In this document: piece after piece, positions 5,263 to 56,021 of the stretch | Layout: the number at the start of each line of letters is the position of its first letter | Position numbering within the stretch: the first letter of the stretch is position 1 | NCBI GenBank assembly: GCA_040384485.1 | Contig: JAZKJH010000002.1 | Span: 231,951-295,950, forward strand | Direction: 5' to 3' | From: Patescibacteria group bacterium | Lineage (GTDB): Bacteria > Patescibacteriota > Minisyncoccia > Phycocordibacterales > DATDWN01 | DNA: 64,000 bases | Notes under the pieces: generated by a model | What the model saw: only the letters and a program-made list of their open reading frames with translations | Told to the model about the DNA's origin: nothing | The model's database searches: none | Position numbers and translations under genes: made by a program

Positions 5263-5265
5263 TTT

Positions 5266-5805: not shown

Positions 5806-5810
5806 ACGGT

Positions 5811-6314: not shown

Positions 6315-6372
6315 TTCTGAACCTCCGTCATAAGATTACAATTCCTAGTGTAATTGTCAAACTTCTAAAAAA

Positions 6373-6397
6373 CTCACATAGGACTGCCCTATGTGAG
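6373..6397. promoter_or_regulatory. palindrome P4: CTCACATAGG-ACTGC-CCTATGTGAG
   Basis: Perfect 10-bp arms. On the minus strand it is followed by TTTTTT and then TTGACAATTAC. It could double as the terminator of 6418..6969. Confidence 0.55.
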
Positions 6398-6417
6398 TTT
6401 TGTTTTTAAAAACCTAA

Positions 6418-6969: not shown

Positions 6970-7024
6970 TTGACCTCCATGTTCTAGTATCTATTTTACA
7001 CAAACTAAAACAAAAAGCACCAAG

Positions 7025-7744: not shown

Positions 7745-7750
7745 TTTTAT

Positions 7751-8401: not shown

Positions 8402-8428
8402 AGTTTTTTAATTATAACTAAAATATAC

Positions 8429-8460
8429 AAAAAAATCCCCGCCTATAAAAGCGCGGGGAT
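8429..8460 (-). terminator. rho-independent terminator of 8472..9038
   Basis: ATCCCCGC-CTATAAAA-GCGGGGAT preceded by an A-run, which is a T-run on the minus strand. Confidence 0.6.
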
Positions 8461-8471
8461 TGTATCTTTAC

Positions 8472-9038: not shown

Positions 9039-9142
9039 CTATCCAACTCCTACAATCAGTACTGCAAAACACAGGCGATGAGAGTTGATCTGGTAACTAG
9101 AATACAATTTTTAAGTCTTACTGTCAACATACTGTCTCGAAC

Positions 9143-23290: not shown

Positions 23291-26200
23291 TTATTCCCAA
23301 TTACCATACCATTTTTCGTTACCGTCAGCATCGATTTCCCAGATCACAACTGGAGCGGTAGCGCTGTCGGTACTGTGTATGTTGTAATTGTTAAAATTTG
23401 TCTCACGTTTATCTTTTAAACCTATTTTTTTACATTTTAAAAACCTTTTTCTATATGAATCACTGACTGACTGCCGGTTGGTGGAAGCCATCCCGCGGGA
23501 GTCCATAGGTATTGCAACTTGTTGACACAGCATTTCCTTCGGAAGACTAGGGTCAGCTTTAATTCTTTCTTCTCTTAGTCGCTTCGCAGTCTCGATAGCC
23601 TCTTTCAGAACACCCTTCACAAAAGTATCGGCATTAACACTTTGAATAAAGTTTTCTGCTGGGTTGTTGGCACGTACAACAAGCACTGGCGTACCGGAAG
23701 ACCTGTTTGCTTGAATAGCCAACACAGAACCTCGTAGCTCTTCGTTTTGCTTACCTCTATTTGTTACATACACCCAAGTCCTAAGGCCTGGATACAGTCC
23801 TTTGGCCATGCTTTCATGTTGCGATGTATGACAAGAGTCCCCTAAATCCCCTGAGTAAATATTCAGTACCCCCGACACTGGCACCATCGATACCGCGACC
23901 TCTTTTTGAGTTTTTCCAGAGTAAACCCCCAAGATCTTGTCTAGTTTGTTTTTTAAAACTGTTATTGGCAAATGACCTGTTTGTTTATCGAGCTGTTGTT
24001 GCCAAGCGAGAGTAAGTTTTTCAAGTAACTCAGGAGAGAAACTCACATGGGATGTATGTTCTGGATCTTGTAAATGGTGAAGATAATGCTCCTCTATATA
24101 ATCTCGCGCAATCTTATGCACTCTGTAGACCATATCTGGGTTTGGAGACCGTCCTTCTTCAGAATCTACTAAACTATCGATCTCATCTCTTGAACCCTCA
24201 TCCATCACAATGCCATACATATGTAAGGCCGAAAAATCTCGTATTTCTTGTACTAAAGGAAGTTTTGCATCGAGTTTGTTCAGTTCTTCCAATACAGCAA
24301 CATAATCCTGGTCTTCCTGACTAGAATTATGAAGTTTTTTATCCAAATTTTTAATCTGCTCAGATGCATCTCTCAAGATATCTGCTTGGCGCTCGATTCC
24401 TTGTCTGCCTTTTGGGCTCTTAAGGGCTTTTAGTTTTTTAGACAGATTTTGTTTCTTTACAGAATCTTCCTCGTCCTCAATCATACTTTCTATATCTTCT
24501 AGTGAACTAGAAAGAAGCTGTCTAATACTGTTTTCCTCCGAAGCTAGCTTGCTCAATAAAGTGTTAAAGAACTGAAATGTTCCATTGCTTGAAGCAAAAT
24601 CGAGAGACTCCATAAGTGGCCCGCAAACATTTTTTAACTCTTGACTGGACATTAGCTCTTCCAAAGCTTTTTCTTGGTCAGGTGTTTTTTCTGATCCACG
24701 ACTCACAACAGAAACCTTGAAGCTTGATTCTTTAAAGCCTACAGGTAACTGAGCCACCTCTGGTTTATTTGTAATTGTTTTCTCCCATGTTGATACAATG
24801 TCTGATAATGCGTGATCTCTCTCAAATTGAGTGGAACCCTTTATCACACTAAACAACTCATCCCCTAATTCAGTTTTAAGTCCATCTGGAATAGTGTCCG
24901 CCAAAAGACTAGTTTTAATCCTTTTTAGGCCTTTGACTAATTCGTTAAACAATTCCAAAGAACTGTTGAACTTCCAAGATCCATCTTTGTTTTTTGCCTT
25001 AACTCCAAACTCTTCACATATACTTATGGTATCAGGACCGATTCTGTCCAGAGTTTTACTCCTATGACAGTCGGCATATACCTTAAACAGTCTCGGCAAG
25101 TTGCTCATTCCCATGGACTCAACAAAACTGACCACCAGCTCCGCATCCTCTGCTTTCTCTATAGAAACTATCTTATGGTCCACCAAATACTTCATTAGTG
25201 GTTTCAACTCTTGTTCCCAAGGATCGTTGGTGACATTAGCAGCGATAGCCTGGATTTTTTGCATTCTAGAAAAAGCATTGACCCACGGGTTGCGTGAAAT
25301 TATCTTGTGTAATTCATTAGCGATTTCGCTTTCTTTGGAAACTTCTTCCGTAAACTTTAGAACAGTGACCACTTTTTTGGGATCACTATACAAATGACTA
25401 TTCATCCAAGTTGAGATACTTTCAGGGTTGAATACTTTACCTGCAGCTTTCTCCCCGCCCATTTTTTCCAACACTAAATAGAAAAGAGTTTTATTTCCAT
25501 GTTTAATCGCTGTGACCAAAATATCTGTTGCGATCCCACTTATAAATTTAGGATCTGGTATTATCTCTTCAAGCTTGAATGCACCTGCTGGGTTCTGACC
25601 GGTGTCGATCAAAGATCTGACTGCATGGCTGGCTATGCGTTTTAATTCCTCTGAACTAAACTCTATTTGCTTGCCGGTTATTTTTTGAATTTTTGCTATT
25701 CGCTCTATGGTTTCGTTAAGACCATAAGCATCAAATGTTGTAAGATATCGAATAGCATAATTCCTAATCGGTATCTCATGTAATGCCCAGTCAATCTTTA
25801 CTTGAGTCAGCTCTTGTATAAGCTTGATAGAATCAGCGTTGCCTCGAAAAAGTCTCTGTACGTAAATGTCTTCAATTACTAGTCCGGTGAATTTCGGCTT
25901 AACTTTCGTTATAGTCTCCCATTCAGAAATATTAGCCTTCGCCCTCTCATATGTAGACTGATTATTAATTGTTGAAACTATAACATTGTATTGCTCCTGA
26001 ACCAGCCCTTCATTATTAGTAAAATCTGGTTCTATGCCTGTCATTTGATATCCGGCAGTGATAAGTTGCTTCATGTCTCTGTAGTTGTTTACAATCCAGG
26101 TTCTATAAGCCAATTGCATTCTTTTCGAATCAATTGTAGGTCGAATATTTGTGATTTTGTAAATTATTTCAGCTTTTTTTAAGCCTCTTGTTCCGTAGTA

Positions 26201-27715
26201 AGTGTCAGTTTCATATGCAGTAGCATTCAGAATGATTTCTGCATACATTTTTTGCACTTCTTTCTCCATTGATTTAAAATCTGGCTCCACACCTGTCAGC
26301 TGAACTAATGTTGGAACGTAATCCTCGGCATACTGAGATGGGTTTGTGAAAGCATCTAAATATTTATTTCTAACCTCCTCTGGGCTTATTTTAAACTTAA
26401 TGCCTGTTAATGAGCAAAGTTTTTTCATCGCCCGGAGTGTTTCCGGATAATATGACGAATACCCAAGTAGGTTTTCTTTATACTTATTTTGCAAGTGTAT
26501 ATCGTACGACTGGTAATCAGGTTTTATGCCTGTTAGTTCTTGCAAAAATGAAAATACTGGTTTTAGATCATCTTCATCATCGGATTTGTGGCAGGATTCT
26601 AGAGCCAAATTCCAGTATGCATACCTTATTAATCCTGGAAACCTTCCACTTTGATTATGTTCTTCTAGTAATTTATTTATTTCTTCCACTCGACGTTTGC
26701 AATCAGGAAGATTAGTACTGTCTGAATAAATAAAAAAATCTGAGAATTCCTTAATACTGTTTTTAAGTTCAATATCAAGAAATCTAAGTTCGTGTATCTC
26801 ATCAACCCCCTTCGGGTCAAGTGGGTCAGGAATACGCATGGGCTCTCTAGAGTATTGCTTTACACTTGAAACAATATAATCGATTGCATCATTAAACTTC
26901 TTTATCTCATTTTCCTCAGTTGTTTTTACCCTGATATTAACAAGTGCTTGAAGAATCGATTCTGCATCAAATATCCTAAGATTCTTAGGGTTTCCACCAG
27001 CCAAATTATAATCTGTTGTCATCTCTATATCAAAAATCTTCTTTAATTTTTCGATATCGTTCACATCGCCGATACGTCCCACTGGTCTATAGATATAGCT
27101 CTTAGTAGATCTATCTTCACTGTTTGCGACAGACTTATGCGCATAAAAATCTAGAACTAACTTCTTGTTTTTGGGTGTAGCCACGAGTTCTACTAACTGG
27201 GAATACCTAAATATTGTAGAGCTATGAGTTACTGGTTGATCCAAATAATCCAAAACATACAAAAGGACTTTAGATCCCTCCTTTCTAAGTTCATTACGTA
27301 ATCTTATAGTTTTTTGTAATGGAGTTTCTTCTATTTGTGGTTCAACCTCAACCTTATGTTCTGGCTGATTTTCCACCTGAGGTACGACTTTAACTTTATC
27401 GTCTTCCAGATTTTCTCCCTCATGTTGCGGATTTAGTTGCTCAAAAGGAACACCATTGTTTTCCTCGTTGTTATCATTGTCATCATCATAGGGAGGATCG
27501 TAGTCATAAAAGTCATCGTCATAATCGTCCTCATCATGGTCTGCTATATAAGGGTCATCCCACACACCCAAACGAACACACTCTTCCACTAGAGCTCTCA
27601 TGCGCTCCATGTCCTCTGGAGAAAGCTTGGCCTCTATTTGTTCCTCTGGTGACTTTCTCAAAGTCTCAACAGCTTCTGCAAGTGATTCCAGGCCCTTAAA
27701 AACCTTTCTTTCCAT
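23291..27715 (-). CDS. giant (1474-aa) cytoplasmic repeat protein A, paralogue of 27801..32000
   Basis: No signal peptide. N-terminal HEAT/PBS-lyase-like repeats (DRSTKSYIYRPVGRIGD). An acidic DDDDFYDYD block. About eight ~45-aa modules around (L/I)TGI(K/E)PD(F/Y). A conserved C-terminal domain with YSGDLGDSCHTSQHESMA. Confidence 0.8.
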   Translation of the reverse strand: MERKVFKGLESLAEAVETLRKSPEEQIEAKLSPEDMERMRALVEECVRLGVWDDPYIADHDEDDYDDDFYDYDPPYDDDNDNNEENNGVPFEQLNPQHEGENLEDDKVKVVPQVENQPEHKVEVEPQIEETPLQKTIRLRNELRKEGSKVLLYVLDYLDQPVTHSSTIFRYSQLVELVATPKNKKLVLDFYAHKSVANSEDRSTKSYIYRPVGRIGDVNDIEKLKKIFDIEMTTDYNLAGGNPKNLRIFDAESILQALVNIRVKTTEENEIKKFNDAIDYIVSSVKQYSREPMRIPDPLDPKGVDEIHELRFLDIELKNSIKEFSDFFIYSDSTNLPDCKRRVEEINKLLEEHNQSGRFPGLIRYAYWNLALESCHKSDDEDDLKPVFSFLQELTGIKPDYQSYDIHLQNKYKENLLGYSSYYPETLRAMKKLCSLTGIKFKISPEEVRNKYLDAFTNPSQYAEDYVPTLVQLTGVEPDFKSMEKEVQKMYAEIILNATAYETDTYYGTRGLKKAEIIYKITNIRPTIDSKRMQLAYRTWIVNNYRDMKQLITAGYQMTGIEPDFTNNEGLVQEQYNVIVSTINNQSTYERAKANISEWETITKVKPKFTGLVIEDIYVQRLFRGNADSIKLIQELTQVKIDWALHEIPIRNYAIRYLTTFDAYGLNETIERIAKIQKITGKQIEFSSEELKRIASHAVRSLIDTGQNPAGAFKLEEIIPDPKFISGIATDILVTAIKHGNKTLFYLVLEKMGGEKAAGKVFNPESISTWMNSHLYSDPKKVVTVLKFTEEVSKESEIANELHKIISRNPWVNAFSRMQKIQAIAANVTNDPWEQELKPLMKYLVDHKIVSIEKAEDAELVVSFVESMGMSNLPRLFKVYADCHRSKTLDRIGPDTISICEEFGVKAKNKDGSWKFNSSLELFNELVKGLKRIKTSLLADTIPDGLKTELGDELFSVIKGSTQFERDHALSDIVSTWEKTITNKPEVAQLPVGFKESSFKVSVVSRGSEKTPDQEKALEELMSSQELKNVCGPLMESLDFASSNGTFQFFNTLLSKLASEENSIRQLLSSSLEDIESMIEDEEDSVKKQNLSKKLKALKSPKGRQGIERQADILRDASEQIKNLDKKLHNSSQEDQDYVAVLEELNKLDAKLPLVQEIRDFSALHMYGIVMDEGSRDEIDSLVDSEEGRSPNPDMVYRVHKIARDYIEEHYLHHLQDPEHTSHVSFSPELLEKLTLAWQQQLDKQTGHLPITVLKNKLDKILGVYSGKTQKEVAVSMVPVSGVLNIYSGDLGDSCHTSQHESMAKGLYPGLRTWVYVTNRGKQNEELRGSVLAIQANRSSGTPVLVVRANNPAENFIQSVNADTFVKGVLKEAIETAKRLREERIKADPSLPKEMLCQQVAIPMDSRGMASTNRQSVSDSYRKRFLKCKKIGLKDKRETNFNNYNIHSTDSATAPVVIWEIDADGNEKWYGNWE

Positions 27716-27800: not shown

Positions 27801-30800
27801 TTACTCCCAATTACCGTGCCATGTTTCCTTCCCGTCTGCATCTATTTCCCAGATCACCACTGTGGCAGTACCGCTACGTAAACTATGAACATCATATCCA
27901 TTAAAGTTTGTCTCTCTAGTACTCTCTAACTCAACCTTTTTACACTCCTTGAATCTTTTTCTGTACACATCATTTACTGGTTGGCGGTTGGTAGATGCCA
28001 TACCTCGTGAGTCCATTGGAATTGTTACTTTTTGACAAAGAAGATGGTTGGGTAGGCTTGGGTTAGATTTGATTCTCTCTGCTCTCAAACGTTTTGCTGT
28101 TTCGACTGCTTGTTTCAACACATCTACCACAAGAGACTCTGATTCAACACTTTGAATAAAGTTTTCTGAAGGATTGTTTGCTCTTACAATAAGGACCGGC
28201 GAACCATCTGGTTCTGTCGCTTGGATAGATAACACCGAACCCTTTAACTCCTCATTCTGCTTACCTCTGTTTGTTACATAGACCCAGGTCCGGAGGTTAG
28301 GATATGACCCGTTCGCCATTGATTCATGCTGATGAGTATGACAAGAGTCACCCAAGTCCCCTGAGTAAATGTGAAGTAGACCAGAAACAGGAACTAGAGA
28401 AACAGAAATCTCCTTTTTAGTTTTTCCAGCATATACTCCTAAAATCTTGTCTATTTTGTTTTTCAAAACAGTGATAGGCAAATGCCCAGTTTGTTTATCA
28501 AGCTGCTGTTGCCACACAAGAGTTAGTTTTTCTAAAAGCTCTGGAGAAAAAGTTTGGTGATTTGTGTGTTCACTGTCCTGCAGGTGATGCAAATAATGCT
28601 CCTCTATATAGTCTCTGGCAATTTTATGTAGCTTATATATATTTTCCGGACTTGGTGATACACCTTCATCAGAATCTACCATGTCAGTCACAGCTACTCT
28701 TTGTGCCCCCTGCATAACCACATCAAACATATGCAATGCAGAAAAATCTCTTATCTCTTTAGTTAAAGGAATTTTTTTATCAAGCTGATTTAATGCTTCT
28801 AGAACGTCCGTGTAGTCCGAATCCTGTGAATGACCTTCATCAAACTTATCCTGCACCTTTACTACCTGATCTACAGAGTCCCGCAAAATATCTGCCTGAT
28901 TCTCTATTCCCAATCTGCCTTTAGGATTTTGTAAGGCTTTAAATTTCTTCGTTAAATTTTGTTTTGATTTTGGATCCTCCTCTTTTTCTATCATGCTCTC
29001 CATTTCTTCTCTGGAGCAGGAAAGAAGTCTTCTAAGAGACGTCTCCTCTTCTTTGAGTTTGGCCACCAAATCAGTGAAAAAATTATAAACTCCTTTTGTA
29101 GCTCCGAACTCGATAGATTTTGCCAGTGGCACGTAAGAATCCACCACTTCCTGACTACTCATTAGTTTTTCTAACTCCACCTCCTGATCCGCAGTTTTTT
29201 CTATTTTGTGACTTAATGCGGGAACTTTAAAAGTAGCTTCCTGGAAACCAGAGGGTAATTTTGCCACTTCTGGATACGCTTCTGCAGTGTTATTCCATAT
29301 ATCAAGAAGCACTGGTAAACTATGACTCCTTTCAAATTGGGTTGAACCTTTTATACGACTAAACAGTTCCTCCCCTAACTCAGTAGTAAGAGCTCCCGGA
29401 ACTTTATCTTCCAGCAAGCCAGTCTGAATACCTTTGAGAATTTTACTTAACTCATTGAACAGCTCCAAAGAACTTTTAAATCTCCAGGATCCGTCTTTGT
29501 TTTTTGTCTTAATGTCACAACCTTCACACACACTGATTGTGAATGCACCTAATTTATCTAAAGTTTTGTTTCTATGACAATCAGCATAAACCTCAAAGAT
29601 TTTGCTCAAATTCTTCATGCCCATAAGCTCAATAAAAGATACCACCAATTCAGCATCTGCAGGATTCTCCATAGAAATTATTCTTTCACCCACAATAAAC
29701 TTCATAAAAGGTTTGAATTCTTTTGTCCATGGGTCATTGGTTACATTTTTTGCCACGGCTTGAACTTTTTCGAGCCTTGTAAAAGCTGACATCCATGGGG
29801 TATGGGAAATTTCTTTATAAATAGAAAATGCTAACTCACTCTTATCAGAATGCTCTTGTAAAAACTTTAGGATAGTAAAACTTTTTCCTGGATCTTCGTG
29901 GAGATTACGGATAGCAATCTCTGACATGCTTTTAATATTAAAATCTACTTTTCTTCCTTTAAGTTGCTTGATTGCCTCCCCAAAAAGGTGGCTGTCGGCA
30001 TATTGAATAGCATGCACCAAAATATTTTCAATAACAGAATTGATAGCCTCCTGATCAGAGAAAATTTCTTGGAATCTAAGGGTGCCGAGTGGGGACATGC
30101 CGTATTCTCGTAAACGTCTTCTATTTGTCGAAATGATTCCAACCATTTCATCCTGTGTAAAATTTATCTTTAATCCCGTTATCTCTTGGACTTGCTTCAC
30201 ACTATCAATAACCTTGTCAAAATCGTATGGGTCATAAACAGTAAGAACATCGAGGCATTTACTCTTTATTTCTTTCTCCCGAGAAGTCCAGCCAATGTCG
30301 ACCCCTGTTAGTGTTTGCAAGGCCATTATTGTCTCGGCCGACCCTCTAAAAAGGTTACGCACATAAATTTCACCTATTATTTTTTCATTGTACTGAGGCT
30401 TAATTTTACAAATTTTCTCCAAATTCTCAATTTGTTTCATTGCCGCAGACAATGAGTCGACACTAATGACTCCTGAAAGGATTCGGCTATATTTATTTTG
30501 GACGTGAGCCTCCGATTTAGAAAAGTCTGGCTCTATTCCAGTAAGCTCATAACCTTTGGTAATTAGGTCAACTACATCTCCTGTACCGTCAAAGAGCCAA
30601 GTTTGGTAACAAAGTTGCATTTGAGAATCCTTAATTTTTGGACGGATTTTTGTTTTTTCATACATCAATTCTGCACATTTAAATCCTGTAGCACCCCAAT
30701 AATCATCGGACTCATAACTGCTGGAATTCATAATTATGCGATCGTAAGATTGCTGAATCTCGGGTTCTAACTTATTAAAGTCGATTTTGCTTTCTGTTAC

Positions 30801-32000
30801 ACTCTCGAGTATTTCCAAATAATCATTTGGATACTTGTGCAGGTTAGCCAAAACATATATATACTTTTCTTTTATGAAATTCGGATCTACCTCGAACTTG
30901 ATTTTAGTTATTGAATACAATTTTTCAATGCACATAAGGTTGTAGTCCTCCACCTCATCACCCGGAAAAAAGTTTTCATCATACATGCCTTGTACCTCAC
31001 TCTTACGAGAAGTGTAGTCCGGTTTCAAGTTGGTAATTGTTTCTAAAAAAGCTATTTGTTCAAAGTATTCGTCACCACGGGAGACACGTTCCGTCATTTT
31101 CCAATAAGCATTTTGTATTAGTTCTGGAAGTAAATCCTCTGCTTTCTCCTCTGCAAGTGCTTTTTTCAAGTTTGTAAAATTAGAAACAGTTCGGGTATTG
31201 TCTATGGCCTGAGACTCAAAATAGCGATTAAACTCTCTAATTAGTTCTGAAGTATTAGGATGGAAAAACTCTGAGCGGAATTCAATATCGGCTTCATGAG
31301 GATCATTTGCATGAGGAGTATAAACTTGGCCTATCTCTCCATTGATATAGTTGATAGCATTATTTATTCTTTCTATATCATGCTCATTCTTTGTGCGCGC
31401 TCGAATATCCACTAAGGCCCGAATAACCAAATCACCATCTAAGGATTTGTAATACTCCTTATCGTATTGCTGGTAGTTCGTAGTGAGAGTAATGTCAAAA
31501 TATTTTTTCAAACCTTCAACATGATCGGCACTACCAATACGGCCCATAATTTCATGAATATATGATTTAGTTGATCTGTCTGGAATAGCAGCAACATCTT
31601 TTTTGCTATAAAACTCAAGAATTTCATCAGCATTTTCTTCTGATGCAGCATACTTCAAAATTTTTGAGTATTTATAGACCTTAAGGTTGTTTACCTCCGG
31701 TCCATCCATGTATTGCAAAATAAGAGGAACTATTTTTCCCCTTTCATCCCTAATCTGCCTACGCAGTTTTACTATTTCTTCATTTCTAGCATCCTGGTCT
31801 TCTTTACGTTTATGACTTAATCCTCGAGTGCTATATACCGAATCCCATACACCTTTTTCCATGCATTCTTCCAAAAGAGCTTCCATACGCTCCATTTCCT
31901 CCGGAGAAAGCTTGGCCTCTATTTGTTCCTCTGGTGACTTTCTCAAAGTCTCAACAGCTTCTGCAAGTGATTCCAGGCCCTTAAAAACCTTTCTTTCCAT
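27801..32000 (-). CDS. giant (1399-aa) cytoplasmic repeat protein B, paralogue of 23291..27715
   Basis: The first 33 aa are identical to A, and the nucleotides at 31900..32003 are essentially identical to 27611..27716. It has the same module series and the same C-terminal domain (YSGDLGDSCHTHQHESMA). Confidence 0.8.
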   Translation of the reverse strand: MERKVFKGLESLAEAVETLRKSPEEQIEAKLSPEEMERMEALLEECMEKGVWDSVYSTRGLSHKRKEDQDARNEEIVKLRRQIRDERGKIVPLILQYMDGPEVNNLKVYKYSKILKYAASEENADEILEFYSKKDVAAIPDRSTKSYIHEIMGRIGSADHVEGLKKYFDITLTTNYQQYDKEYYKSLDGDLVIRALVDIRARTKNEHDIERINNAINYINGEIGQVYTPHANDPHEADIEFRSEFFHPNTSELIREFNRYFESQAIDNTRTVSNFTNLKKALAEEKAEDLLPELIQNAYWKMTERVSRGDEYFEQIAFLETITNLKPDYTSRKSEVQGMYDENFFPGDEVEDYNLMCIEKLYSITKIKFEVDPNFIKEKYIYVLANLHKYPNDYLEILESVTESKIDFNKLEPEIQQSYDRIIMNSSSYESDDYWGATGFKCAELMYEKTKIRPKIKDSQMQLCYQTWLFDGTGDVVDLITKGYELTGIEPDFSKSEAHVQNKYSRILSGVISVDSLSAAMKQIENLEKICKIKPQYNEKIIGEIYVRNLFRGSAETIMALQTLTGVDIGWTSREKEIKSKCLDVLTVYDPYDFDKVIDSVKQVQEITGLKINFTQDEMVGIISTNRRRLREYGMSPLGTLRFQEIFSDQEAINSVIENILVHAIQYADSHLFGEAIKQLKGRKVDFNIKSMSEIAIRNLHEDPGKSFTILKFLQEHSDKSELAFSIYKEISHTPWMSAFTRLEKVQAVAKNVTNDPWTKEFKPFMKFIVGERIISMENPADAELVVSFIELMGMKNLSKIFEVYADCHRNKTLDKLGAFTISVCEGCDIKTKNKDGSWRFKSSLELFNELSKILKGIQTGLLEDKVPGALTTELGEELFSRIKGSTQFERSHSLPVLLDIWNNTAEAYPEVAKLPSGFQEATFKVPALSHKIEKTADQEVELEKLMSSQEVVDSYVPLAKSIEFGATKGVYNFFTDLVAKLKEEETSLRRLLSCSREEMESMIEKEEDPKSKQNLTKKFKALQNPKGRLGIENQADILRDSVDQVVKVQDKFDEGHSQDSDYTDVLEALNQLDKKIPLTKEIRDFSALHMFDVVMQGAQRVAVTDMVDSDEGVSPSPENIYKLHKIARDYIEEHYLHHLQDSEHTNHQTFSPELLEKLTLVWQQQLDKQTGHLPITVLKNKIDKILGVYAGKTKKEISVSLVPVSGLLHIYSGDLGDSCHTHQHESMANGSYPNLRTWVYVTNRGKQNEELKGSVLSIQATEPDGSPVLIVRANNPSENFIQSVESESLVVDVLKQAVETAKRLRAERIKSNPSLPNHLLCQKVTIPMDSRGMASTNRQPVNDVYRKRFKECKKVELESTRETNFNGYDVHSLRSGTATVVIWEIDADGKETWHGNWE

Positions 32001-40226: not shown

Positions 40227-40685
40227 TTATGAAAATAAGCCGCTCAAATGTTCAACGAGTTCATTTATGGATGAAAATTGTGAAATTTTGTATCTTTCAC
40301 AAACTATATCTACGTTGCCCTTTCTCCAAAAACCTTCTGGGCAGACCACTAGTAGTTTTCCACTTGTTGCATATAAACCGAGCTCAAGTAATGAAATAGG
40401 AGACTTTGTGTTCGGATCAAAATACATAACTATATAGTCACTAGCATCTAATGCATCCAGCTCCCAATCCACCTGCTCTTTAAAGTTCTTATTATCTATT
40501 TTTTGTTCCCAACTGCTTTCCCAGTGCTCTCTGCGGGGATTCAGAAACACAACTTGCTCCTTTTCCAACAAACTGACTACCCGATGCTGCCAATCTTCCG
40601 CTGTATTCATCTCTATACTACCTGCAAGAAAAATCTTCTTGTCTTTTGTATCAGGAATTATATTTGGTGCTTTTATTTCAATCAT
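40227..40685 (-). CDS. nucleoside 2-deoxyribosyltransferase-like (flavodoxin-like fold) protein
   Basis: KIFLAGSI at the N-terminus and ISLLELG in the family-typical position. Confidence 0.5.
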   Translation of the reverse strand: MIEIKAPNIIPDTKDKKIFLAGSIEMNTAEDWQHRVVSLLEKEQVVFLNPRREHWESSWEQKIDNKNFKEQVDWELDALDASDYIVMYFDPNTKSPISLLELGLYATSGKLLVVCPEGFWRKGNVDIVCERYKISQFSSINELVEHLSGLFS

Positions 40686-40723: not shown

Positions 40724-41443
40724 CTACCTCCACAAAAGATTAAAAATTTGTATGTAAAACCCGGCAAAACTTTTGTCATCTACAATAACCACTTCCTTCT
40801 TTTTATGAAAAATTAGTTTAACCAAACTACCACAGACCTCAACCGACATGCCTGGCGAAAATACACTTGGCGATATTCTTTTGTTTTCAAAACCATATTT
40901 TTTGTCATTCTCTCGAAAACTCTGGTCGTAAGAATCAGAGGGGGTTATACCTTTTAATTTAAACCCAAGTTTATAAAGATCAGCACAATGTTCCACATAA
41001 GCCTCACTCACCTTCTCCTTTTTGCCAACCCCTGCATAGAACGCATAAATTTGTTTATCTTTTGACGAATGAATACCGTACGCAAGGCCCTGAACCAAAG
41101 CTCCGTCTCCCTTGAATACCAACACATCTGTGGCAGGTCTTGTGAGTGTGGGGAGCAAAGACAAAAATTCTCCCATATTTTTATTTATTTTGGATTGATA
41201 TTCATTTATAAACTCGTTAGGATCTTTAGCTATATAAATTTTATTTTTAGTATGGGGAATAACCAAAGCTAGCCCTTTTTTGCGTAAATCTTCCATAATC
41301 AAATAAACTGTTGGGCGTTTTACACCCGATTCTTTGGCTACTTCGTATGAAGTACCTTGCCCGATTTTATATAAGGCCAAATAAACTTTCGCCTCCTTTT
41401 CACTTAGTCCTAACGATGCAAGAGTTTTAAGTATTTTATCCAT
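40724..41443 (-). CDS. TrmB-family transcriptional regulator
   Basis: N-terminal winged helix-turn-helix: LGLSEKEAKVYLALYKIGQGTSYEVAKESGVKRPTVYLIMEDLRKKGL. Confidence 0.75.
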   Translation of the reverse strand: MDKILKTLASLGLSEKEAKVYLALYKIGQGTSYEVAKESGVKRPTVYLIMEDLRKKGLALVIPHTKNKIYIAKDPNEFINEYQSKINKNMGEFLSLLPTLTRPATDVLVFKGDGALVQGLAYGIHSSKDKQIYAFYAGVGKKEKVSEAYVEHCADLYKLGFKLKGITPSDSYDQSFRENDKKYGFENKRISPSVFSPGMSVEVCGSLVKLIFHKKKEVVIVDDKSFAGFYIQIFNLLWR

Positions 41444-45753: not shown

Positions 45754-46242
45754 CTAAGTTAACTTCTTCAGCAAATATTCGCCATGTTTTACAGACACAG
45801 GTTGGACGGAAAGCCGTGAGCCGGTTTGGGCAACCACAATGCCTTCTAGTTTTGGATCAAATTTTATTTGAGCCAAGGTGAGTGGGGTTTTAAACTTTTT
45901 TACATATTTTATATCCACACAAAACCAAATTGGTTTTTCTTTTGTAGCCTTTGGTTCGTAATGATCATCCTTTTTATCGAACTGAGTTTGGTCTGGATGA
46001 GCAACACTACATACCTGTGCTAGTCCGTAAATACCGGCCGGAGTCGCGTGTGTTCCACCAGAGTAATAAAAGAAAACAAAATCCCCTACCTTCATATCAC
46101 GCACCATATAGTTGCGAGCTTGATAGTTACGGACTCCACCCCAAGAAGTTTTCTTGTCGGACTTCAGATCATCAATGCTGTAACAATCCGCTTCGCTTTT
46201 CATTAACCAATACTGTTTTGATTCTTTAGAAACTTTTGCCAT
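45754..46242 (-). CDS. EVE (PUA-like) domain protein
   Basis: YWLMKSE...WGGVRNYQARNYM...GDFVFFY motifs. Confidence 0.7.
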   Translation of the reverse strand: MAKVSKESKQYWLMKSEADCYSIDDLKSDKKTSWGGVRNYQARNYMVRDMKVGDFVFFYYSGGTHATPAGIYGLAQVCSVAHPDQTQFDKKDDHYEPKATKEKPIWFCVDIKYVKKFKTPLTLAQIKFDPKLEGIVVAQTGSRLSVQPVSVKHGEYLLKKLT

Positions 46243-48049: not shown

Positions 48050-48721
48050 TTAAAACAAATCAAGAATATCGCTTATGTTTCTTATGGAATACGCTGACGG
48101 GTGTCTCTTTGGCAAAAGAAGAACCGATGGAATTTCAGCAGCCTCAGCTGCTTCAATCCCCGCAATCCCGTCCTCCACAACCAGACAGTCCGATAGTGGT
48201 GTGTTACCAGCAGCCTTGAGCCATACCTCTGGATGAGGCTTACCTTCTTGCACCATGTCTCTGCCGACAATGCTTTCTGCTCGAAAAAAATGATACAAGC
48301 CATTAATATCGAGCAATCTTTGTGCCCACATAACAGGTGAGGCAGTTCCAATAGCCAGTTCGACTCCTCGAAGTTGGAGTTGCGTGAACAACCGACGGAG
48401 ATCACACATCTCCCTGGCTTCTTTTGCAAGTGGCAACAACATTCCCCACTTTTTATCTGACAATTCTGCAGCAAGTGGTTGAGGACAACCCATGAGCTCC
48501 ATGAATACTCGTTCCGTTTTGACTCCAGCATATTTATCGCTGATGTCGTCAGCTGAGACATGAATCCCATGTGTAGCCATAAGCTGCGACTCAATTTGTG
48601 CATGGAACTTTTGGGTATCCCAAAGTGTTCCATCCAAATCGAACAAGACTTTCTTTATCAATCTGACCTCCAACAGTGATAGTACAATACCTGATTTACT
48701 TGTCAACAAAAACACCAGCAT
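48050..48721 (-). CDS. HAD-superfamily hydrolase (beta-phosphoglucomutase-like, subfamily IA)
   Basis: VLFDLDGTLWDT motif I. G+C-richer than the surrounding window. Confidence 0.7.
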   Translation of the reverse strand: MLVFLLTSKSGIVLSLLEVRLIKKVLFDLDGTLWDTQKFHAQIESQLMATHGIHVSADDISDKYAGVKTERVFMELMGCPQPLAAELSDKKWGMLLPLAKEAREMCDLRRLFTQLQLRGVELAIGTASPVMWAQRLLDINGLYHFFRAESIVGRDMVQEGKPHPEVWLKAAGNTPLSDCLVVEDGIAGIEAAEAAEIPSVLLLPKRHPSAYSIRNISDILDLF

Positions 48722-48970: not shown

Positions 48971-49378
48971 TTAATCAATTCTACTTAGGTCTCCTCCCAA
49001 AATAACAGAACCTAGAGACTGAAGCTCGTCGTCGATATATTTCTGATTTGGCAAAGGATTCAAAACAAAAATCTTTTTGCCTCTATAATGTGCAAAAGCC
49101 ATTTCCAAAAATGTACTGGCTCCAATATAGTTTTCTATCTCTTTTTTTGTATAGTTCAAAACCAAGATAGCATCTGAGCTATCGATTTTATCGAAATGAG
49201 TTTTAGCTAGATTCAGACTCTTCTTAGCTTCTATACGTTTTGAGCCATCCTCCTCCCAATAGTCTAGTCCTGGTACTTGAATAGGCATAAGAACAGTGTG
49301 CCCTCTCGAACGCAGCTGCTCATCTATTGCAAGCATCTCATTAAAAAACTTGATTGACCCACACAAAGTTATTTTCAT
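48971..49378 (-). CDS. nucleoside 2-deoxyribosyltransferase-like protein
   Basis: ITLCGSIKF...DAILVLN...IGASTFLEMAFA matches the PF05014-type pattern. Confidence 0.55.
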   Translation of the reverse strand: MKITLCGSIKFFNEMLAIDEQLRSRGHTVLMPIQVPGLDYWEEDGSKRIEAKKSLNLAKTHFDKIDSSDAILVLNYTKKEIENYIGASTFLEMAFAHYRGKKIFVLNPLPNQKYIDDELQSLGSVILGGDLSRID

Positions 49379-49440
49379 ATTTTCAATAATATCACTTTTC
49401 GACGCTTTGACATCCTAGACAAAAAGCATAAAGTTAGTGT

Positions 49441-50538
49441 ATGTCAAAAGTCCTAGTTACAGCTGGACCCATACCAGCAAGAGTTGACTCAGTCAAATAC
49501 ATACTCAACAGGTTTCGTGGTGGTTTAGCACTAAAAACAGCTGAAAATCTACAAAAAATGGGGCACGAAGTAACTGTCCTAGCTTGGGAATATGCTGGCA
49601 TTGAAACCGAGCTACCTTTGATCAAAATCAGAGACGTCAACGACTACTTCGAAAAAGTTCTGGAATATAAAGCTGATGCATACATACTAGCGGCAGCAGT
49701 AGCCAACCTTGCTCCTCTCAATCCTTTCCCCGGCAAGTTTCCATCTCACAACTACAAAGTAGGTGACGTTTTCCCTATCGAGTTCACTATTGCCCCTAGA
49801 GTCATAGATTCTATTAAAAACAAATACCCAACTGCAACTTTAGTAGCCTATAAGCTATATGATGGAACAGACGAAGAGCTGATAAAAGCTGGGAAGAAAA
49901 CTTTGTTCGAGAGTCGAGCTAATATAGTTTTTGCGAACCACCCTAAGTGGGCAAAAGAAAAAAAGCTGGTCATAACCGCAGATGGTGCTGTGTTTCCTGT
50001 TAGTTTCGACGAACATATAGACCTGATTGATAAACTTCTTAAAGAAGATTTTTACAAAACAGAAATAGGAGGTGAGACTACGCCCGACCTGACAAGCGAG
50101 GATATTTTTATTATAGGCTCTTATCCAAAACACAGAGATTCAAACATGGTATTCGGCACATTTGCTATTAGGAAACCGAACGGCTTTCTAACCACAACTC
50201 GAGGAAAAAAACTTGGAGAAAAATCGATCTCTTTTGTGACGAATGTAGATCATGAAAATAGGATAGTTTATGCAAACCAAAAAGCTACCCTAAACGCTCC
50301 TCTACTCCATATGTTGTTTCAAGAAAACCCACACATAAAATACCTAGTACACGGACATGAACTAATAGGAGAAAAAACTCAGGATATGTATCAGTTTCCG
50401 GGAACTGCCGGAGACTTGAATAATGTAGTAACAGCTCCTGGTAAAGATTTTCTAATTGAACTTCCCCACCATGGATACATAGCTGGGTTTTCTGAATTTG
50501 TTGAATGCCAAGAATTTATAAAAAAACACAATGACTGA
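49441..50538 (+). CDS. CoaB (phosphopantothenate-cysteine ligase)-like N-terminal domain fused to a C-terminal domain with class II aldolase-like His motifs
   Basis: VLVTAGPIPARVDSVKYILNRFRGG...GHEVTVL resembles the CoaB/DFP signature. The C-terminus has LVHGHE and LPHHGY. Confidence 0.6.
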   Translation: MSKVLVTAGPIPARVDSVKYILNRFRGGLALKTAENLQKMGHEVTVLAWEYAGIETELPLIKIRDVNDYFEKVLEYKADAYILAAAVANLAPLNPFPGKFPSHNYKVGDVFPIEFTIAPRVIDSIKNKYPTATLVAYKLYDGTDEELIKAGKKTLFESRANIVFANHPKWAKEKKLVITADGAVFPVSFDEHIDLIDKLLKEDFYKTEIGGETTPDLTSEDIFIIGSYPKHRDSNMVFGTFAIRKPNGFLTTTRGKKLGEKSISFVTNVDHENRIVYANQKATLNAPLLHMLFQENPHIKYLVHGHELIGEKTQDMYQFPGTAGDLNNVVTAPGKDFLIELPHHGYIAGFSEFVECQEFIKKHND

Positions 50539-51133
50539 TTGGAACAAATACAAAAATACATTCCCGACGCGATACCTAGAACAGGGGTACTTCGATGAAT
50601 ACATCAAAAAAATAATTTCTGAAACAAAACCTAAAACTATTCTAGATATTGGTGGCGGAGTAACCGGCACCACAGCACTTGTTGATTCTGGAGCAAAAGT
50701 CTACCTTCTTGATCCCTTTGTTACAAACAAACCTGACTGGATATTCGAAAAAATAAATTGGGACACTGTCCAACAATTTGATTTAGTTGTGGCGCGTGGA
50801 AGCATCAACTACCTAACAACAAATGAATTATTAAAAATCAATAAATTAATCAGTCCCGAAGGAACTTTTATTGCCAATACATTTCTAAATCAGCCAAAAC
50901 AAGAATGGTCGGAAAGGCTGTATGTAAATACACTGGGTGAAGAAGGGACAGAACGCTCTAGATACAATCTTGAAAAGCAGGTTATTGAGCACGAATTAGT
51001 TACTAAATCTGGAGAAGTCATTAGCCACACTTTCTTTTACCATTCGCCAGATATCTACAAAAAGATATTCCCTGGTATAAACATAACTGAGTACAAAACT
51101 AACTCAGCCATTCTACATTTTAGATTTTTTTAA
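50531..51133 (+). CDS. probable class I SAM-dependent methyltransferase
   Basis: ILDIGGGVTG (motif I) with a downstream LLDPF. It overlaps the upstream gene by 8 bp (ATGA), suggesting translational coupling. Confidence 0.5.
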   Translation: MTDWNKYKNTFPTRYLEQGYFDEYIKKIISETKPKTILDIGGGVTGTTALVDSGAKVYLLDPFVTNKPDWIFEKINWDTVQQFDLVVARGSINYLTTNELLKINKLISPEGTFIANTFLNQPKQEWSERLYVNTLGEEGTERSRYNLEKQVIEHELVTKSGEVISHTFFYHSPDIYKKIFPGINITEYKTNSAILHFRFF

Positions 51134-54731: not shown

Positions 54732-56021
54732 TTAGTAGTTTGCTTGTATGTAAGCTCGAGTAATCGGACCAAAGTTACCCAAGGCAGGATTAACACCAAC
54801 ATTGGCCTGGAACTCTGCTAACGCAGCTCGAGTAAGTACACCAAAGTATGAAGTTGCACCAACTCTAGCAAGAGCTTTTGCAGATGCACCTATATCAAGA
54901 GAAATTAGAAAATCTTGAAGAGTCTTTACGTCTCCTCCTCTACTGCCCACACCAAGACTCATAGCGATAAGCTTGATTGGGTTTGGTGGGTTAGCTCCTG
55001 ACTGTGCTGATTGCATTATTTGAATCTGCGCCATCAAAACACTCAACTGTGCCTCAAGTGCAGCTCTTTGTTCTGCAGTACCTGAGTTCGAATTTGAAGT
55101 AGTATTTGTAGAAGTGTTTGATGGAGTGTTTGTTGTAGTTTGATTGTTTGTATTTGATGTAACAACTGGCGAGTTCGGGTTTGTAGTTCCCGAATTAGTG
55201 TTACTTGTTGAAGTAACAGTAACAACTGGTTCAACTACTGGAACAACTACTGTAGCTGTTCCTTCTGACTTTGTAATTGAGTTTGAATCGAGAGTCACTG
55301 CTGTTTGAGCCAATGCTCTACCATTTAGACTTGCACCAGTGTTAAACACAATCGCTGTCTTTCCGAGTATGTTTCCATTAAAAGCAGCTGTTGTACCGAT
55401 AGTAACCTGTCCACCTACAATCCAGTAGACATTGTTTGCCTGAGCACCACCAGATAGAACTATGTTTACACCAGAACTCACATCTAGAGTTTGTGCTATT
55501 TGGAAAATCCAAATATCATTTGGTCCACCAGACAAAGTTACATTACTTGGAACAATAACTCCGGTTCCCCATTTGTATAAACCAGGTGTAATAGTAAGAC
55601 CTCCAATGTTACCAGCACCTAACTCTGTTGCAGTCGGGTTAGTTCTTCCAGCTCCATCTGTGTATGCTGTTTCCATATCACCTATTGCTGTTATTAAATT
55701 ACTTGGAGTTGGATCTGCATACCCAGGAGCATATATTTTCCCTGTTACTATTGCAGATGTTGAAAATGCAGAAGCAGATGGAAGTGATAAAGCGAAACCT
55801 GTTATTGCACTAGCTGAGATAGGACTGACTCCCAAGTCTCCTGTAACCATAGTAGTTCCTGTAGTTGAAACTCCTGTTTTAGATAGTATTACAAAGTTTC
55901 CAGCAGTTCCTAGGTTTATAGCACCTGGTCCAGCTGCCAAAGCAGTGTTAGAAGCAGTAATCCCAAAAAGAGAGAACATTAGTAAAAACGCGAGTAACGA
56001 ATACTTGTTATTTTTTTTCAT
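54732..56021 (-). CDS. secreted DUF3494 (ice-binding-like) domain protein with a Thr/Asn/Ser-rich linker and a C-terminal peptidoglycan-binding domain
   Basis: Signal peptide. LGTAGNFVILSKTGVSTTGTTMVTGDLGVSP. C-terminal LGVGSRGGDVKTLQDFL...YFGVLTRAALAEFQ. Confidence 0.7.
   Translation of the reverse strand: MKKNNKYSLLAFLLMFSLFGITASNTALAAGPGAINLGTAGNFVILSKTGVSTTGTTMVTGDLGVSPISASAITGFALSLPSASAFSTSAIVTGKIYAPGYADPTPSNLITAIGDMETAYTDGAGRTNPTATELGAGNIGGLTITPGLYKWGTGVIVPSNVTLSGGPNDIWIFQIAQTLDVSSGVNIVLSGGAQANNVYWIVGGQVTIGTTAAFNGNILGKTAIVFNTGASLNGRALAQTAVTLDSNSITKSEGTATVVVPVVEPVVTVTSTSNTNSGTTNPNSPVVTSNTNNQTTTNTPSNTSTNTTSNSNSGTAEQRAALEAQLSVLMAQIQIMQSAQSGANPPNPIKLIAMSLGVGSRGGDVKTLQDFLISLDIGASAKALARVGATSYFGVLTRAALAEFQANVGVNPALGNFGPITRAYIQANY

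Follow-up and report, generated by a model that had tools for sequence, protein, structure and literature searches.

What does a gene of the Patescibacteria do that carries the public name of an enzyme of coenzyme A (CoA) synthesis, and which of its neighbours work with it? The gene lies in the window, i.e., the whole 64,000-nucleotide (64-kb) stretch of DNA analysed here, where an initial annotation had drawn three open reading frames together into one cluster: a minus-strand gene for a deoxyribosyltransferase-like protein (48971..49378), a divergent plus-strand gene fusing a CoaB-like domain to a class II aldolase-like domain with His motifs (49441..50538; hereafter FUS), and a plus-strand gene for a SAM-dependent methyltransferase (50531..51133; hereafter MT). 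All three frames exist at these positions, and are regarded as genes rather than chance open frames, because full-length homologues of FUS number in the hundreds. The 365 aa product of FUS is 100% identical to P0001, encoded on a 331,679-bp contig of a Patescibacteria metagenome-assembled genome, and its NCBI name is "phosphopantothenoylcysteine decarboxylase". The intergenic region between FUS and the divergent gene spans 62 bp and holds a promoter-like site, TTGACA-16-TAAAGT (49407..49434, plus strand), which ends 6 nt 5' of the FUS start and agrees with the consensus at 10 of 12 positions; it is a consensus match only, and the number of such sites in this region is not above the shuffled expectation.

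The ORF call, Pfam and an AF2 model (pLDDT 94.1, pTM 0.89) divide FUS into two domains. The N-terminal one (approximately aa 1–200; 49441..50040) has the three-dimensional fold of CoaB, the phosphopantothenate-cysteine ligase, matches Pfam family DFP (E-value, 9e-18), and is closest to the streptococcal-type monofunctional CoaB (PDB 2gk4). Asn23 (49507..49509), invariant across the FUS family, aligns with the Asn of the CoaB ISN motif and is equivalent to Asn210 of E. coli CoaB. Lys99 (49735..49737) is invariant as well, but its equivalence to the CoaB Lys depends on a gapped HMMER alignment, and the KxKK motif has become GKFPSH. Throughout the family, the triphosphate loop SSGK is replaced by RF(K/R)GG and AAVAD(Y/F) by AAVANL, where F25, G27 and N89 do not vary at all and the second Gly hardly varies; SSGK, AAVAD(Y/F) and KxKK are the reference motifs of CoaB used for this comparison, along with the alignments.

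The C-terminal domain (approximately aa 201–365; 50041..50538) has a class II aldolase fold according to structure prediction, the check proposed in the initial annotation, and not that of the flavoprotein phosphopantothenoylcysteine (PPC) decarboxylase. Its Pfam match to Aldolase_II (PF00596; E-value, 0.023) reaches 15.0 bits, below the gathering score of 22.2; PF00596 is precomputed on a few homologues (P0014, P0120), and P0374, when rescanned, scored 20.1 bits, still sub-threshold. Three invariant residues, His304 (50350..50352), His306 (50356..50358) and His344 (50470..50472), are collinear in the alignment with His92, His94 and His155 of FucA. The acidic residue that serves as general base and fourth ligand in known members (Glu73 in FucA, Asp76 in AraD) is missing, and ungapped spacing from the HxH motif would place the invariant Asn285 (50293..50295) at this position. 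A basic loop, TTTRGK, stands in for the phosphate-binding loop and, in distinction from class II aldolases, bears an Arg and a Lys. Compared with the characterized members of the aldolase/adducin superfamily (FucA, AraD and MtnB, the decarboxylases HMPDdc and OtnC/YgbL, and the Fe(II) pyruvic oxime dioxygenase), the FUS domain is shorter (~165 aa), and its 3-His site without a carboxylate is closer to the dioxygenase and decarboxylase members than to the aldolases.

FUS is not CoaBC, since it lacks any Pfam match to the Flavoprotein domain (PF02441), an aldolase-fold domain being its second domain instead, and since its NCBIfam scores are far below every equivalog cut-off: 54.1 bits against 219.7 for TIGR00521 (coaBC), 53.3 against 265 for NF005231, and 49.3 against 217 for TIGR02114. 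The coaBC model aligns to FUS through its CoaB half only (model positions 188–350). The earlier view that the locus stands apart from canonical CoA synthesis was thus borne out, and the public label is a misnomer. FUS might nevertheless be a divergent CoA enzyme, as that label implies, in which a phosphopantothenate-cysteine ligase would be followed by a non-flavin decarboxylase replacing CoaC. The CoaB fold, the significant DFP and CoaB profile matches and the retained catalytic Asn are compatible with such an enzyme, its layout would parallel that of CoaBC, and decarboxylases do occur in the class II aldolase superfamily (2z7b, 6voq). We consider it highly improbable, as the scores lie 4–5 times under every CoaB/CoaBC cut-off, the nucleotide-binding and substrate motifs are replaced family-wide, the methyltransferase partner has no role in CoA synthesis, and the family is rare and phage-carried. 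Neither the clusters of FUS neighbours nor the families listed from the Pfam censuses included one of the CoA pathway. Decarboxylation of the cysteinyl amide, moreover, requires the oxidative flavin chemistry of CoaC, for which we know of no precedent in the class II aldolase fold.

MT encodes a 200 aa class I SAM-dependent methyltransferase, as indicated by an AF2 model (pLDDT 95.4), Foldseek and invariant residues; together with Pfam, these methods agree with all the domain calls made initially for FUS and MT. The protein has the Rossmann methyltransferase fold, motif I of the (D/E)xGxGxG type (DxGxGxxG; 50645..50668) and an acidic motif II, LLDP, which includes Asp61. D39, G41, G43, G46 and L60 are invariant, and D61 nearly so, while the Pfam match to Methyltransf_23 (E-value, 1e-4; 22.4 bits, cut-off 27) is sub-threshold. 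The best Foldseek matches are N-methyltransferases, namely CypM, CcbJ, glycine-sarcosine NMT and NmbA (E-value, 3e-10 to both 7wzg and 4hgz). With the small-molecule and peptide N-methyltransferases of this kind (CypM, CcbJ, glycine-sarcosine NMT, bacillithiol NmbA, ToxA), MT shares the class I Rossmann fold, both motifs and a C-terminal beta-sheet lid (E-values from 3e-10 to 1e-7), but the identity is only 11–16%, and MT is distinguished by a unique invariant N-terminal segment (W4, Y7, FP, Y15) and by the ARGSINYL and ANTF motifs. The median pI is near neutral for both FUS (7.2) and MT (6.3), and the closest structures of MT are small-molecule N-methyltransferases; both observations favour a metabolite over a nucleic acid as the substrate.

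FUS and MT form a real unit. The ATG of MT sits within ...AATGACTGA, which creates an overlap of exactly 8 bp between the FUS stop and the MT start (ATGACTGA; 50531..50538, plus strand) and confirms the translational coupling noted earlier. In 90 of 94 informative loci, MT is found downstream on the same strand or in a single chain with FUS: directly downstream or overlapping in 56, on the FUS strand within ~1.2 kb in 18, and fused into one ORF in 16. In the FUS tree, the fusions arose in at least three clades. Among the best 150 cluster representatives, some 25 are single chains of 520–590 aa, and all five of those tested matched the MT profile; representatives of 820 aa and 669 aa consist of FUS, MT and additional tails. 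No single chain joining FUS to an NAD enzyme was found.

The FUS family is rare, with 233 clusters at 50% identity among 1.84 billion representatives, and is carried mainly by phage-like contigs of 90–550 kb, as well as by some Patescibacteria. INPHARED yielded one match, an unannotated 485-kb uncultured phage, and PLSDB yielded no plasmid match. Searches of PHROGs with each of the three proteins, with the fused form and with the "u181" neighbour were negative, and Rfam and tRNA scans of the 64-kb window returned nothing. A literature search on CoaB-like proteins, phosphopantothenoylcysteine and PF04127 in phages found nothing relevant; the words pantothenate and aldolase are absent from a review of jumbo phages (PMC7824862), and aldolase, methyltransferase and pantothenate are all absent from the RyR-domain preprint. 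Giant phages are the main vehicles of the FUS-MT pair, which in some Patescibacteria, the present one among them, has also become a fixed part of the chromosome.

The conservation of the neighbourhood, which the initial annotation had made a touchstone, holds for FUS-MT and fails for the deoxyribosyltransferase-like gene. The latter encodes 135 aa and shows a sub-threshold match to Nuc_deoxyri_tr2 (PF15891; E-value, 0.057; 14.2 bits, cut-off 30). Its family (~135 aa, 180 matches) occurs in Patescibacteria and DPANN; some members bear the NCBI name "nucleoside 2-deoxyribosyltransferase", and PF05014 is precomputed on ~30 of 120 listed homologues. A second deoxyribosyltransferase-like gene, also reported initially, is indeed present next to a TrmB regulator (40724..41443, minus strand) and is a bona fide family member (40227..40685, minus strand; Nuc_deoxyri_tr2, E-value, 1e-37). 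The 135 aa protein matches it by BLASTP (E-value, 7e-5), and hhalign of the 135 aa family against it (E-value, 8e-4; probability, 25%; 94 columns) pairs the LEMG of the former, containing the invariant Glu92, with the LELG of the latter as an invariant LE(M/L)G motif. A profile of the 135 aa family matched no structure among the PDB sequences.

No homologue of the 135 aa protein adjoins FUS at the homologous loci searched by tblastn, no gene of this type recurs in neighbour clustering across all FUS loci, and the phage genes immediately 5' of FUS are homologous neither to it nor to each other. In L110, the closest syntenic relative (79% identity; gene order TPR-HAD-X-FUS-MT), the slot of the 135 aa gene is occupied by a MazG-like gene, and in L111 by a gene for a 208 aa protein without a Pfam match, both products being unrelated to the 135 aa protein. 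In the window, a gene for a HAD-family, beta-phosphoglucomutase-like hydrolase (48050..48721, minus strand; Pfam HAD_2, E-value, 2.5e-20) is syntenic with L110, and was not found by tblastn near other FUS homologues. Since the slot in the closest relative holds an unrelated gene, the 135 aa gene is placed outside the FUS-MT unit; its family is a common Patescibacteria and DPANN gene in its own right, independent of FUS. It had been suggested that the deoxyribosyltransferase-like protein, FUS and MT jointly modify a nucleoside or nucleotide. The divergent arrangement around a shared intergenic region could be read in this way, as could the filling of the L110 slot by another nucleotide-processing fold, but the suggestion is already contradicted by the missing conservation, by the unrelated slot proteins and by the spread of the 135 aa family in Patescibacteria and DPANN archaea irrespective of FUS, and there is very little chance that it is correct.

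The neighbours of FUS-MT in other genomes point elsewhere. The neighbour families that recur most often are nicotinate phosphoribosyltransferase (NAPRTase; pncB), in 13 of 91 locus groups, and NadE, in 10; two Pfam censuses covering 273 neighbours of FUS loci revealed no further recurrent family. A search of all ORFs within the fetched flanks, many of which are short, detected pncB at 14 loci, nadE at 11, a nicotinamidase-like (pncA-like) gene at 6 and nadD at 2, amounting to 18 loci in total. NadE adjoins MT in L081, L102 and L109, pncB lies 166 bp 5' of FUS in L037, and a nicotinamidase-like gene comes after MT in L018. In L034, where MT is missing, FUS is followed by NadD (E-value, 1e-29 to 1kam) and a nicotinamidase-like gene. 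Based on the FUS tree, the NAD-linked loci belong to at least four separate lineages, the window's own branch included. The possibility that FUS-MT replaces nadD between pncB and nadE in the main clade was rejected, as a nadD gene is present directly beside FUS in L034 and in the vicinity of FUS-MT in L089.

Clusters of pncB, nadD and nadE are documented in "NAD-jumbo phages" (PMC11662467), in a text that mentions neither pantothenate nor aldolase. The 18 FUS loci represent the same genomic setting, giant phages in which pncB, nadE, nadD and nicotinamidase-like genes enclose or adjoin FUS-MT, whereas the copy in the window has no NAD genes nearby. FUS and MT are homologous to none of the Preiss-Handler enzymes. 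When compared by components as named, their domain content also matches none of those of NARP1-3, the pathways by which phages reconstitute NAD, i.e., Adps, Namat, Nampt, NMN adenylyltransferase, PnuC and NadR (10.1101/2024.02.11.579819; PMC13464706).

Several observations run against a link with NAD. No NAD gene is present in the 64-kb window, most loci have none within their flanks, and the NAD-linked loci are partly related by descent. All four Preiss-Handler enzymes are already accounted for in the clusters, and in L034, the locus where nadD and a nicotinamidase-like gene abut FUS, MT is missing. In L095 the pair is bordered by a cytidylyltransferase and a ThyX-like gene, and genes for RNA repair or with a relation to tRNA turn up here and there at other loci. 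Proximity to NAD genes may arise without shared function, because giant phages pack metabolic genes into islands. To our knowledge, no role for FUS or MT in NAD synthesis has been described, and we know of no established step of the NAD pathway that requires a methyltransferase or an aldolase-fold enzyme.

With these observations in mind, the reading that we favour, tentatively and at somewhat less than even confidence, is that FUS-MT is one enzyme system acting stepwise on a single small molecule, not in CoA synthesis and most likely as an accessory to pyridine-nucleotide (NAD, Preiss-Handler) metabolism. The initial guess of a pathway modifying nucleotides, nucleosides or a cofactor thereby gains some support in its cofactor part, which now points to NAD and away from nucleosides and CoA. 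From the folds, conserved residues, gene coupling and fusion, distribution and NAD-gene neighbourhoods we infer both this link and each chemical step that follows. Every domain is predicted from its conserved residues to be catalytically competent. The CoaB-like domain would use an NTP to turn a carboxylate into an acyl-nucleotide and then join it to an amine, such a ligation being suggested by the fold and the retained catalytic Asn and Lys of CoaB; the substrate would differ from phosphopantothenate, since the P-loop, AAVAD and KxKK are all changed. The aldolase-fold domain would bind a divalent metal through His304, His306 and His344 and carry out a lyase-, decarboxylase- or oxygenase-type reaction on the same molecule, whose phosphate or carboxylate would anchor it in a basic pocket (Arg254, Lys256, Lys281). 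Standard aldol cleavage is not expected, because an Asn would take the place of the general base. MT would finally move a methyl group from SAM, most likely onto an amino nitrogen. As a guess from the genomic context, the substrate could be a nicotinate-type carboxylate (nicotinate, NaMN or NaAD) or a product of NAD breakdown.

Alternatively, the pair could tailor a small molecule unrelated to NAD; it might, for instance, derive from an amino acid, or be a cofactor of the thiol type or a sugar acid, and the NAD genes would merely share the auxiliary-metabolism islands of giant phages with the pair. In agreement with this, Preiss-Handler genes are missing from the flanks of most loci, those of the window and of its syntenic relatives L110 and L111 among them, and the neighbours are heterogeneous; the enzymes structurally nearest to MT have alpha-amino groups as methyl acceptors, in peptides, amino acids or bacillithiol, and a CMP-sugar-type cytidylyltransferase lies directly 5' of FUS in L095. 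Since, however, pncB and nadE recur more often than any other neighbour, adjoin the pair in several loci and occur in at least four deep FUS lineages, and no alternative pathway recurs among the neighbours, we regard a substrate outside NAD metabolism as possible but rather unlikely.

The dominance of phages among the carriers also raises the possibility that a hypermodified base of phage DNA or tRNA, serving to evade host nucleases, is synthesized or put in place by the pair: a carboxylated base would receive an amino acid, or vice versa, and the conjugate would then be trimmed and N-methylated. Scattered neighbours agree with such a role, i.e., NT5C directly 5' of FUS in L010, Tpt1 near FUS in L029 and one further locus, RNA ligase, RlaP, pseudouridine synthases, Ham1, NrdD and a ThyX-like protein, and YqeY in three neighbours. 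In the clade of L065, L069 and L071 a nearby Dam-type amino-methyltransferase replaces MT, which itself has a weak profile match to the tRNA cmo5U34 methyltransferase, and the gene beside FUS in Patescibacteria encodes a fold of the nucleotide "house-cleaning" kind, deoxyribosyltransferase-like in the window and MazG-like in L110. Against this, the listed neighbour families include neither an enzyme of base exchange (TGT/DpdA) nor a glycosyltransferase-type DNA modification enzyme and none recurs, the sole thymidylate-synthase-type neighbour seen is the one divergent ThyX-like gene of L095, and the proteins are near neutral in pI and without a nucleic-acid-binding domain. The nearest MT structures are small-molecule enzymes and the pair is stably chromosomal in Patescibacteria, which makes base modification decidedly unlikely.

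Returning to the favoured link with pyridine nucleotides, depletion of NAD is a major bacterial anti-phage strategy, and three phage pathways that rebuild NAD have been described since 2024. It is conceivable, albeit speculative and on balance unlikely, that FUS-MT takes part in phage NAD warfare as an enzymatic route not described so far. In that case, it would make a product of host NADase defence or a nicotinate-type intermediate usable by the adjacent Preiss-Handler enzymes, or else build a methylated or amide-modified pyridine nucleotide that is accepted by phage enzymes and not by host NADases, the enzymes having been captured by, or donated from, ultra-small Patescibacteria.

Correcting the annotation of FUS prevents a false inference of CoA biosynthesis in reduced genomes, even if the link with NAD fails. 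FUS is a new architecture for the CoaB ligase fold, and its C-terminal domain extends the class II aldolase fold by a variant that has the three His but no general base. The pair also marks genes exchanged by giant phages with bacteria of the candidate phyla radiation. As a conserved pair found inside Preiss-Handler clusters of giant phages and hidden by a wrong "PPC decarboxylase" label, FUS-MT is a specific candidate, open to experimental test, for new chemistry related to NAD or to counter-defence.

ORF calling in the window recovered all three genes described in the initial annotation: that of a 135-aa deoxyribosyltransferase-like protein (48971..49378, minus strand) and, divergent from it, those of a 365-aa CoaB-like/class-II-aldolase-like protein (FUS; 49441..50538, plus strand) and a 200-aa class I SAM methyltransferase (MT; 50531..51133, plus strand). 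The proposed 8-bp overlap of the latter two was evident on sequence inspection, the stop codon of FUS and the start codon of MT lying within the common octamer ATGACTGA. FUS and the 135-aa gene are separated by a 62-bp spacer, inside which a consensus match, TTGACA-16-TAAAGT, was found.

In the Pfam analysis, residues 3–169 of FUS matched the DFP (CoaB) domain (E=9e-18); residues 236–307 matched Aldolase_II below the threshold (E=0.023). The AlphaFold model, built with an input of 40 homologues, is confident (pLDDT 94.1, pTM 0.89). FUS has 100% identity to P0001, encoded on a 331,679-bp MAG contig of a "Patescibacteria group bacterium"; NCBI names P0001 and many homologues "phosphopantothenoylcysteine decarboxylase". 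No flavoprotein domain was found in FUS, and therefore this public name is wrong; only the CoaB (ligase) half is related to CoA. The NCBIfam CoaBC/CoaB equivalogs match FUS weakly (49–54 bits, cut-offs 217–265), with alignments that cover only the CoaB part of the models. Given these scores and the missing flavoprotein domain, a role in CoA synthesis, which the CoaB half by itself would suggest, is very improbable, as had been anticipated.

The CoaB segment TAGP...D-x-V-K-x-I-x-N is kept across the FUS family, with an invariant Asn23 that we take to correspond to the Asn on which the second half-reaction of E. coli CoaB depends. Throughout the family alignment, the triphosphate loop SSGK is replaced by RF(K/R)GG, AAVAD by AAVANL and KxKK by GKFPSH. 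The C-terminal half proved to be class-II-aldolase-like: its profile is collinear with E. coli FucA, aligning His304, His306 and His344 with His92, His94 and His155, respectively, and Gly255 with Gly44. By ungapped spacing, the invariant Asn285 falls at the position of Glu73, which in FucA is both the general base and the fourth zinc ligand, whereas FUS has Asn there. From the motifs and the FucA alignment, FUS probably combines an NTP-dependent ligase with a three-His metal enzyme lacking the aldolase base. Such a protein would activate a carboxylate with NTP and form an amide; its metal domain might act on this same molecule, held through an anionic group, as a non-aldolase lyase, a decarboxylase or an oxygenase.

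The MT family is small and specific (31 matches in a word-indexed search). Its alignment revealed an invariant motif I (D39, G41, G43, G46; MT numbering), an equally invariant, unusual N-terminal segment (W4, Y7, F11-P12, Y15) and a nearly invariant motif II Asp61 (in LLDP). The best profile matches, to phosphoethanolamine N-methyltransferases, are weak. The predicted structure is confident (pLDDT 95.4), and the nearest solved structures are small-molecule/peptide N-methyltransferases (CypM, CcbJ, glycine-sarcosine NMT, CgnL, ToxA and bacillithiol NmbA; E 3e-10 to 1e-7). MT would be expected to N-methylate the product. Because small-molecule methyltransferases are nearest in structure and the pI is near-neutral, we infer a small-molecule substrate; hypermodification of nucleic acid by the pair, which these two features do not favour, is considered decidedly unlikely.

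In total, 111 related loci were collected from GTDB species genomes (7), IMG/VR (14), metagenomes (80) and an exact-protein look-up (10); they form 91 groups at 85% FUS identity and are therefore not all independent. ORFs that we called in 109 of these loci (L001–L109) and in the window were searched with the FUS and MT profiles, with correction for antisense shadow ORFs. MT lies directly 3' of FUS or overlaps it in 56 loci, on the same strand within about 1.2 kb in 18, in one ORF with FUS in 16, and is absent from four; 16 loci were uninformative at contig ends. Hence, the pair is adjacent or fused in 90 of the 94 informative loci. On the neighbour-joining tree, the fusions are spread over at least three clades. 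Of 1.84 billion cluster representatives, only 233 were matched by the FUS profile at E<=1e-30; among the top 150 of these, about 25 have a length of 520–590 aa, and the MT profile matched all five that were tested. These gene fusions are strong evidence that the three domains share one substrate or pathway.

Several variants of this arrangement were observed. P0296 (820 aa) and P0293 (669 aa) are single FUS-MT chains extended at the C-terminus by about 270 and 130 aa, respectively. In neither tail was homology found to other sequences covered by the analysis; the sole Pfam match in their extra parts is a sub-threshold DUF2024 in P0293 (E about 1e-3). One FUS clade without the usual MT (L065:4450-6193, L069:3029-4707, L071:2507-4185) has a conserved 163–176-aa protein 3' of FUS, followed in L069 and L071 by a Dam-type (NPPY) amino-methyltransferase (PF05869, E=3e-17), which may be a non-orthologous replacement of MT. 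In one NAD-linked phage clade, a Cys/His-rich protein of roughly 180 aa, u181, with motifs CCYK(W/Y/F)PW and (H/A)(C/W)WG and no match in Pfam or PHROG, is encoded directly 5' of FUS (L012:7401-7988, L020:7467-7997, L021:7454-7999 and others) or, in L107 (6270-6800), between FUS and MT; it may be an accessory subunit. Nine loci of GC 0.50–0.70 (L006, L016, L019, L045, L057, L066, L090, L093, L108) carry antisense ORFs of up to about 600 aa over FUS/MT; these cluster mutually by BLAST, resemble the shadow ORFs that GC-rich coding sequence produces, and hid the real genes under longest-ORF-first calling.

The 135-aa protein had been placed in the same cluster, but its association with FUS is a local one that is not conserved. 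In the loci searched by tblastn, neither it nor the neighbouring HAD hydrolase adjoins any other FUS homologue. The closest relative, L110 (FUS 79% identical), keeps the gene order TPR-HAD-X-FUS-MT...OmdA, with an unrelated MazG-like protein in slot X (L110:7532-7921, minus strand), and in L111 (FUS 65% identical) the slot holds an unrelated 208-aa protein. A three-gene nucleoside cluster, suggested by adjacency in the window, is accordingly hardly credible. The deoxyribosyltransferase-like assignment itself is reasonable, judging from the many members of this family, widespread in Patescibacteria and DPANN, with PF05014, and from its invariant LE(M/L)G Glu, which aligns with the second such gene proposed (40227..40685, minus strand), a true Nuc_deoxyri_tr2 protein. 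Deoxyribosyltransferase-like and MazG-like proteins, unrelated in sequence, are both nucleotide "house-cleaning" folds. NCBI calls the 48971..49378 gene (minus strand) from a later start, at 121 aa; the family is consistently about 135 aa.

The FUS family is rare, with a patchy, phage-dominated distribution. Nine of the 14 IMG/VR contigs with the pair span 176–548 kb, one 485-kb uncultured phage in INPHARED carries it, and the exact look-up contigs have dense same-strand small ORFs without Pfam matches, plus phage-type replication and chaperone genes. No plasmid with the pair was found in the plasmid database, and the PHROG search gave no match. The seven GTDB loci are recorded under Yanofskybacteria, a Xenococcaceae cyanobacterium, Clostridia, Oscillospiraceae, Erysipelotrichaceae and Woesearchaeota, and a Hermodarchaeota record is among the FUS protein matches. 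The Oscillospiraceae neighbours lack Pfam matches and look phage-like. In the Xenococcaceae locus, FUS-MT is flanked by IS200-type TnpA (L002:3149-3565, minus strand) and IS605 OrfB/TnpB with a Cas12f-like TNB domain (3598-4950, plus strand), consistent with recent mobility. The 95-kb contig L029 represents a large viral or mobile genome of unusual content: FUS-MT, Tpt1 (RNA 2'-phosphotransferase), an adenylosuccinate-synthetase-family gene, DHFR, a SET-domain protein and glycosyltransferases.

In Patescibacteria, where the locus is syntenic between relatives, FUS-MT is a stable chromosomal gene pair. The remainder of the window looks like cellular Patescibacteria chromosome, with an ABC transporter and an M23 peptidase with peptidoglycan-binding domains; no tRNA or Rfam hits were found in it. 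Two adjoining giant ORFs on the minus strand, of 1474 aa (23291..27715) and 1399 aa (27801..32000), probably encode CPR surface proteins; neither gave a Pfam match at E<=1e-3. Also on this strand are an EVE-domain protein (45754..46242, E=9e-51) alongside a DUF218 protein, and a protein that combines an ice-binding-like and a peptidoglycan-binding domain (54732..56021, E=1e-73).

Of the neighbour families from all-against-all clustering, only two recur widely: NAPRTase/pncB, present in 13 of the 91 locus groups, and NAD synthase/nadE, present in 10. Iterative searches of all ORFs found pncB in 14 loci, nadE in 11, a nicotinamidase-like gene (isochorismatase family) in six and nadD in two, so that 18 loci have at least one of these Preiss-Handler genes. 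They fall in at least four separate lineages of the FUS tree, including the branch of the window protein. MT is overlapped or abutted by nadE in three loci (L081, L102, L109), 166 bp separate the end of pncB from FUS in L037, and a nicotinamidase-like gene follows MT in L018. Metagenomic L034 is among the four loci that lack MT; there, nadD (3943-4587; E=1e-29 against 1kam, the NaMN adenylyltransferase of B. subtilis) comes directly after FUS, and a nicotinamidase-like gene (4742-5536; E=3e-5 against yeast Pnc1) after that. In L095, a CMP-sugar-type cytidylyltransferase (CTP_transf_3; 5227-5919), FUS (5959-7158), MT (7155-7859) and a 482-aa ThyX-like protein (7856-9304) form a tight run, 1.3 kb past which lies pncB. 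The remaining neighbours are heterogeneous (Macro, Tpt1, NAD-dependent ligase, ADP-ribosylglycohydrolase, Nudix, NT5C, Ham1, NrdD, a ThyX-like gene, cytidylyltransferase, R2K ATP-grasp, RNA ligase and YqeY).

From this neighbourhood, we infer a tie of the FUS-MT pathway to pyridine-nucleotide metabolism, and an NAD-linked function is tentatively put forward. To our knowledge, no known NAD step requires activities of these types, and metabolic genes in giant phages cluster for reasons besides shared function. Most loci, the window included, have no NAD gene within reach (none was found in an all-ORF search of the 64 kb), as a small-molecule pathway unrelated to NAD would allow; given the recurrent Preiss-Handler genes, such a pathway is rather unlikely. 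Clusters of pncB-nadD-nadE have been published for "NAD-jumbo phages" (PMC11662467), in a paper where neither "pantothenate" nor "aldolase" occurs. The proteins of the described phage NAD reconstitution pathways are unrelated to FUS and MT.

Of the initial annotation, the observations are confirmed and the interpretation holds in part: the non-CoA reading and the coupling of FUS and MT stand, the membership of the 135-aa gene does not. What emerges is more limited in scope than first suggested, and of greater interest. FUS is a conserved, mis-annotated CoaB-like/aldolase-like predicted enzyme with MT as its obligate partner, known folds in a new architecture. The pair is common to giant phages and candidate-phyla bacteria and recurs within phage NAD-salvage clusters. 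In reduced genomes, the decarboxylase label could yield false CoA-pathway calls.
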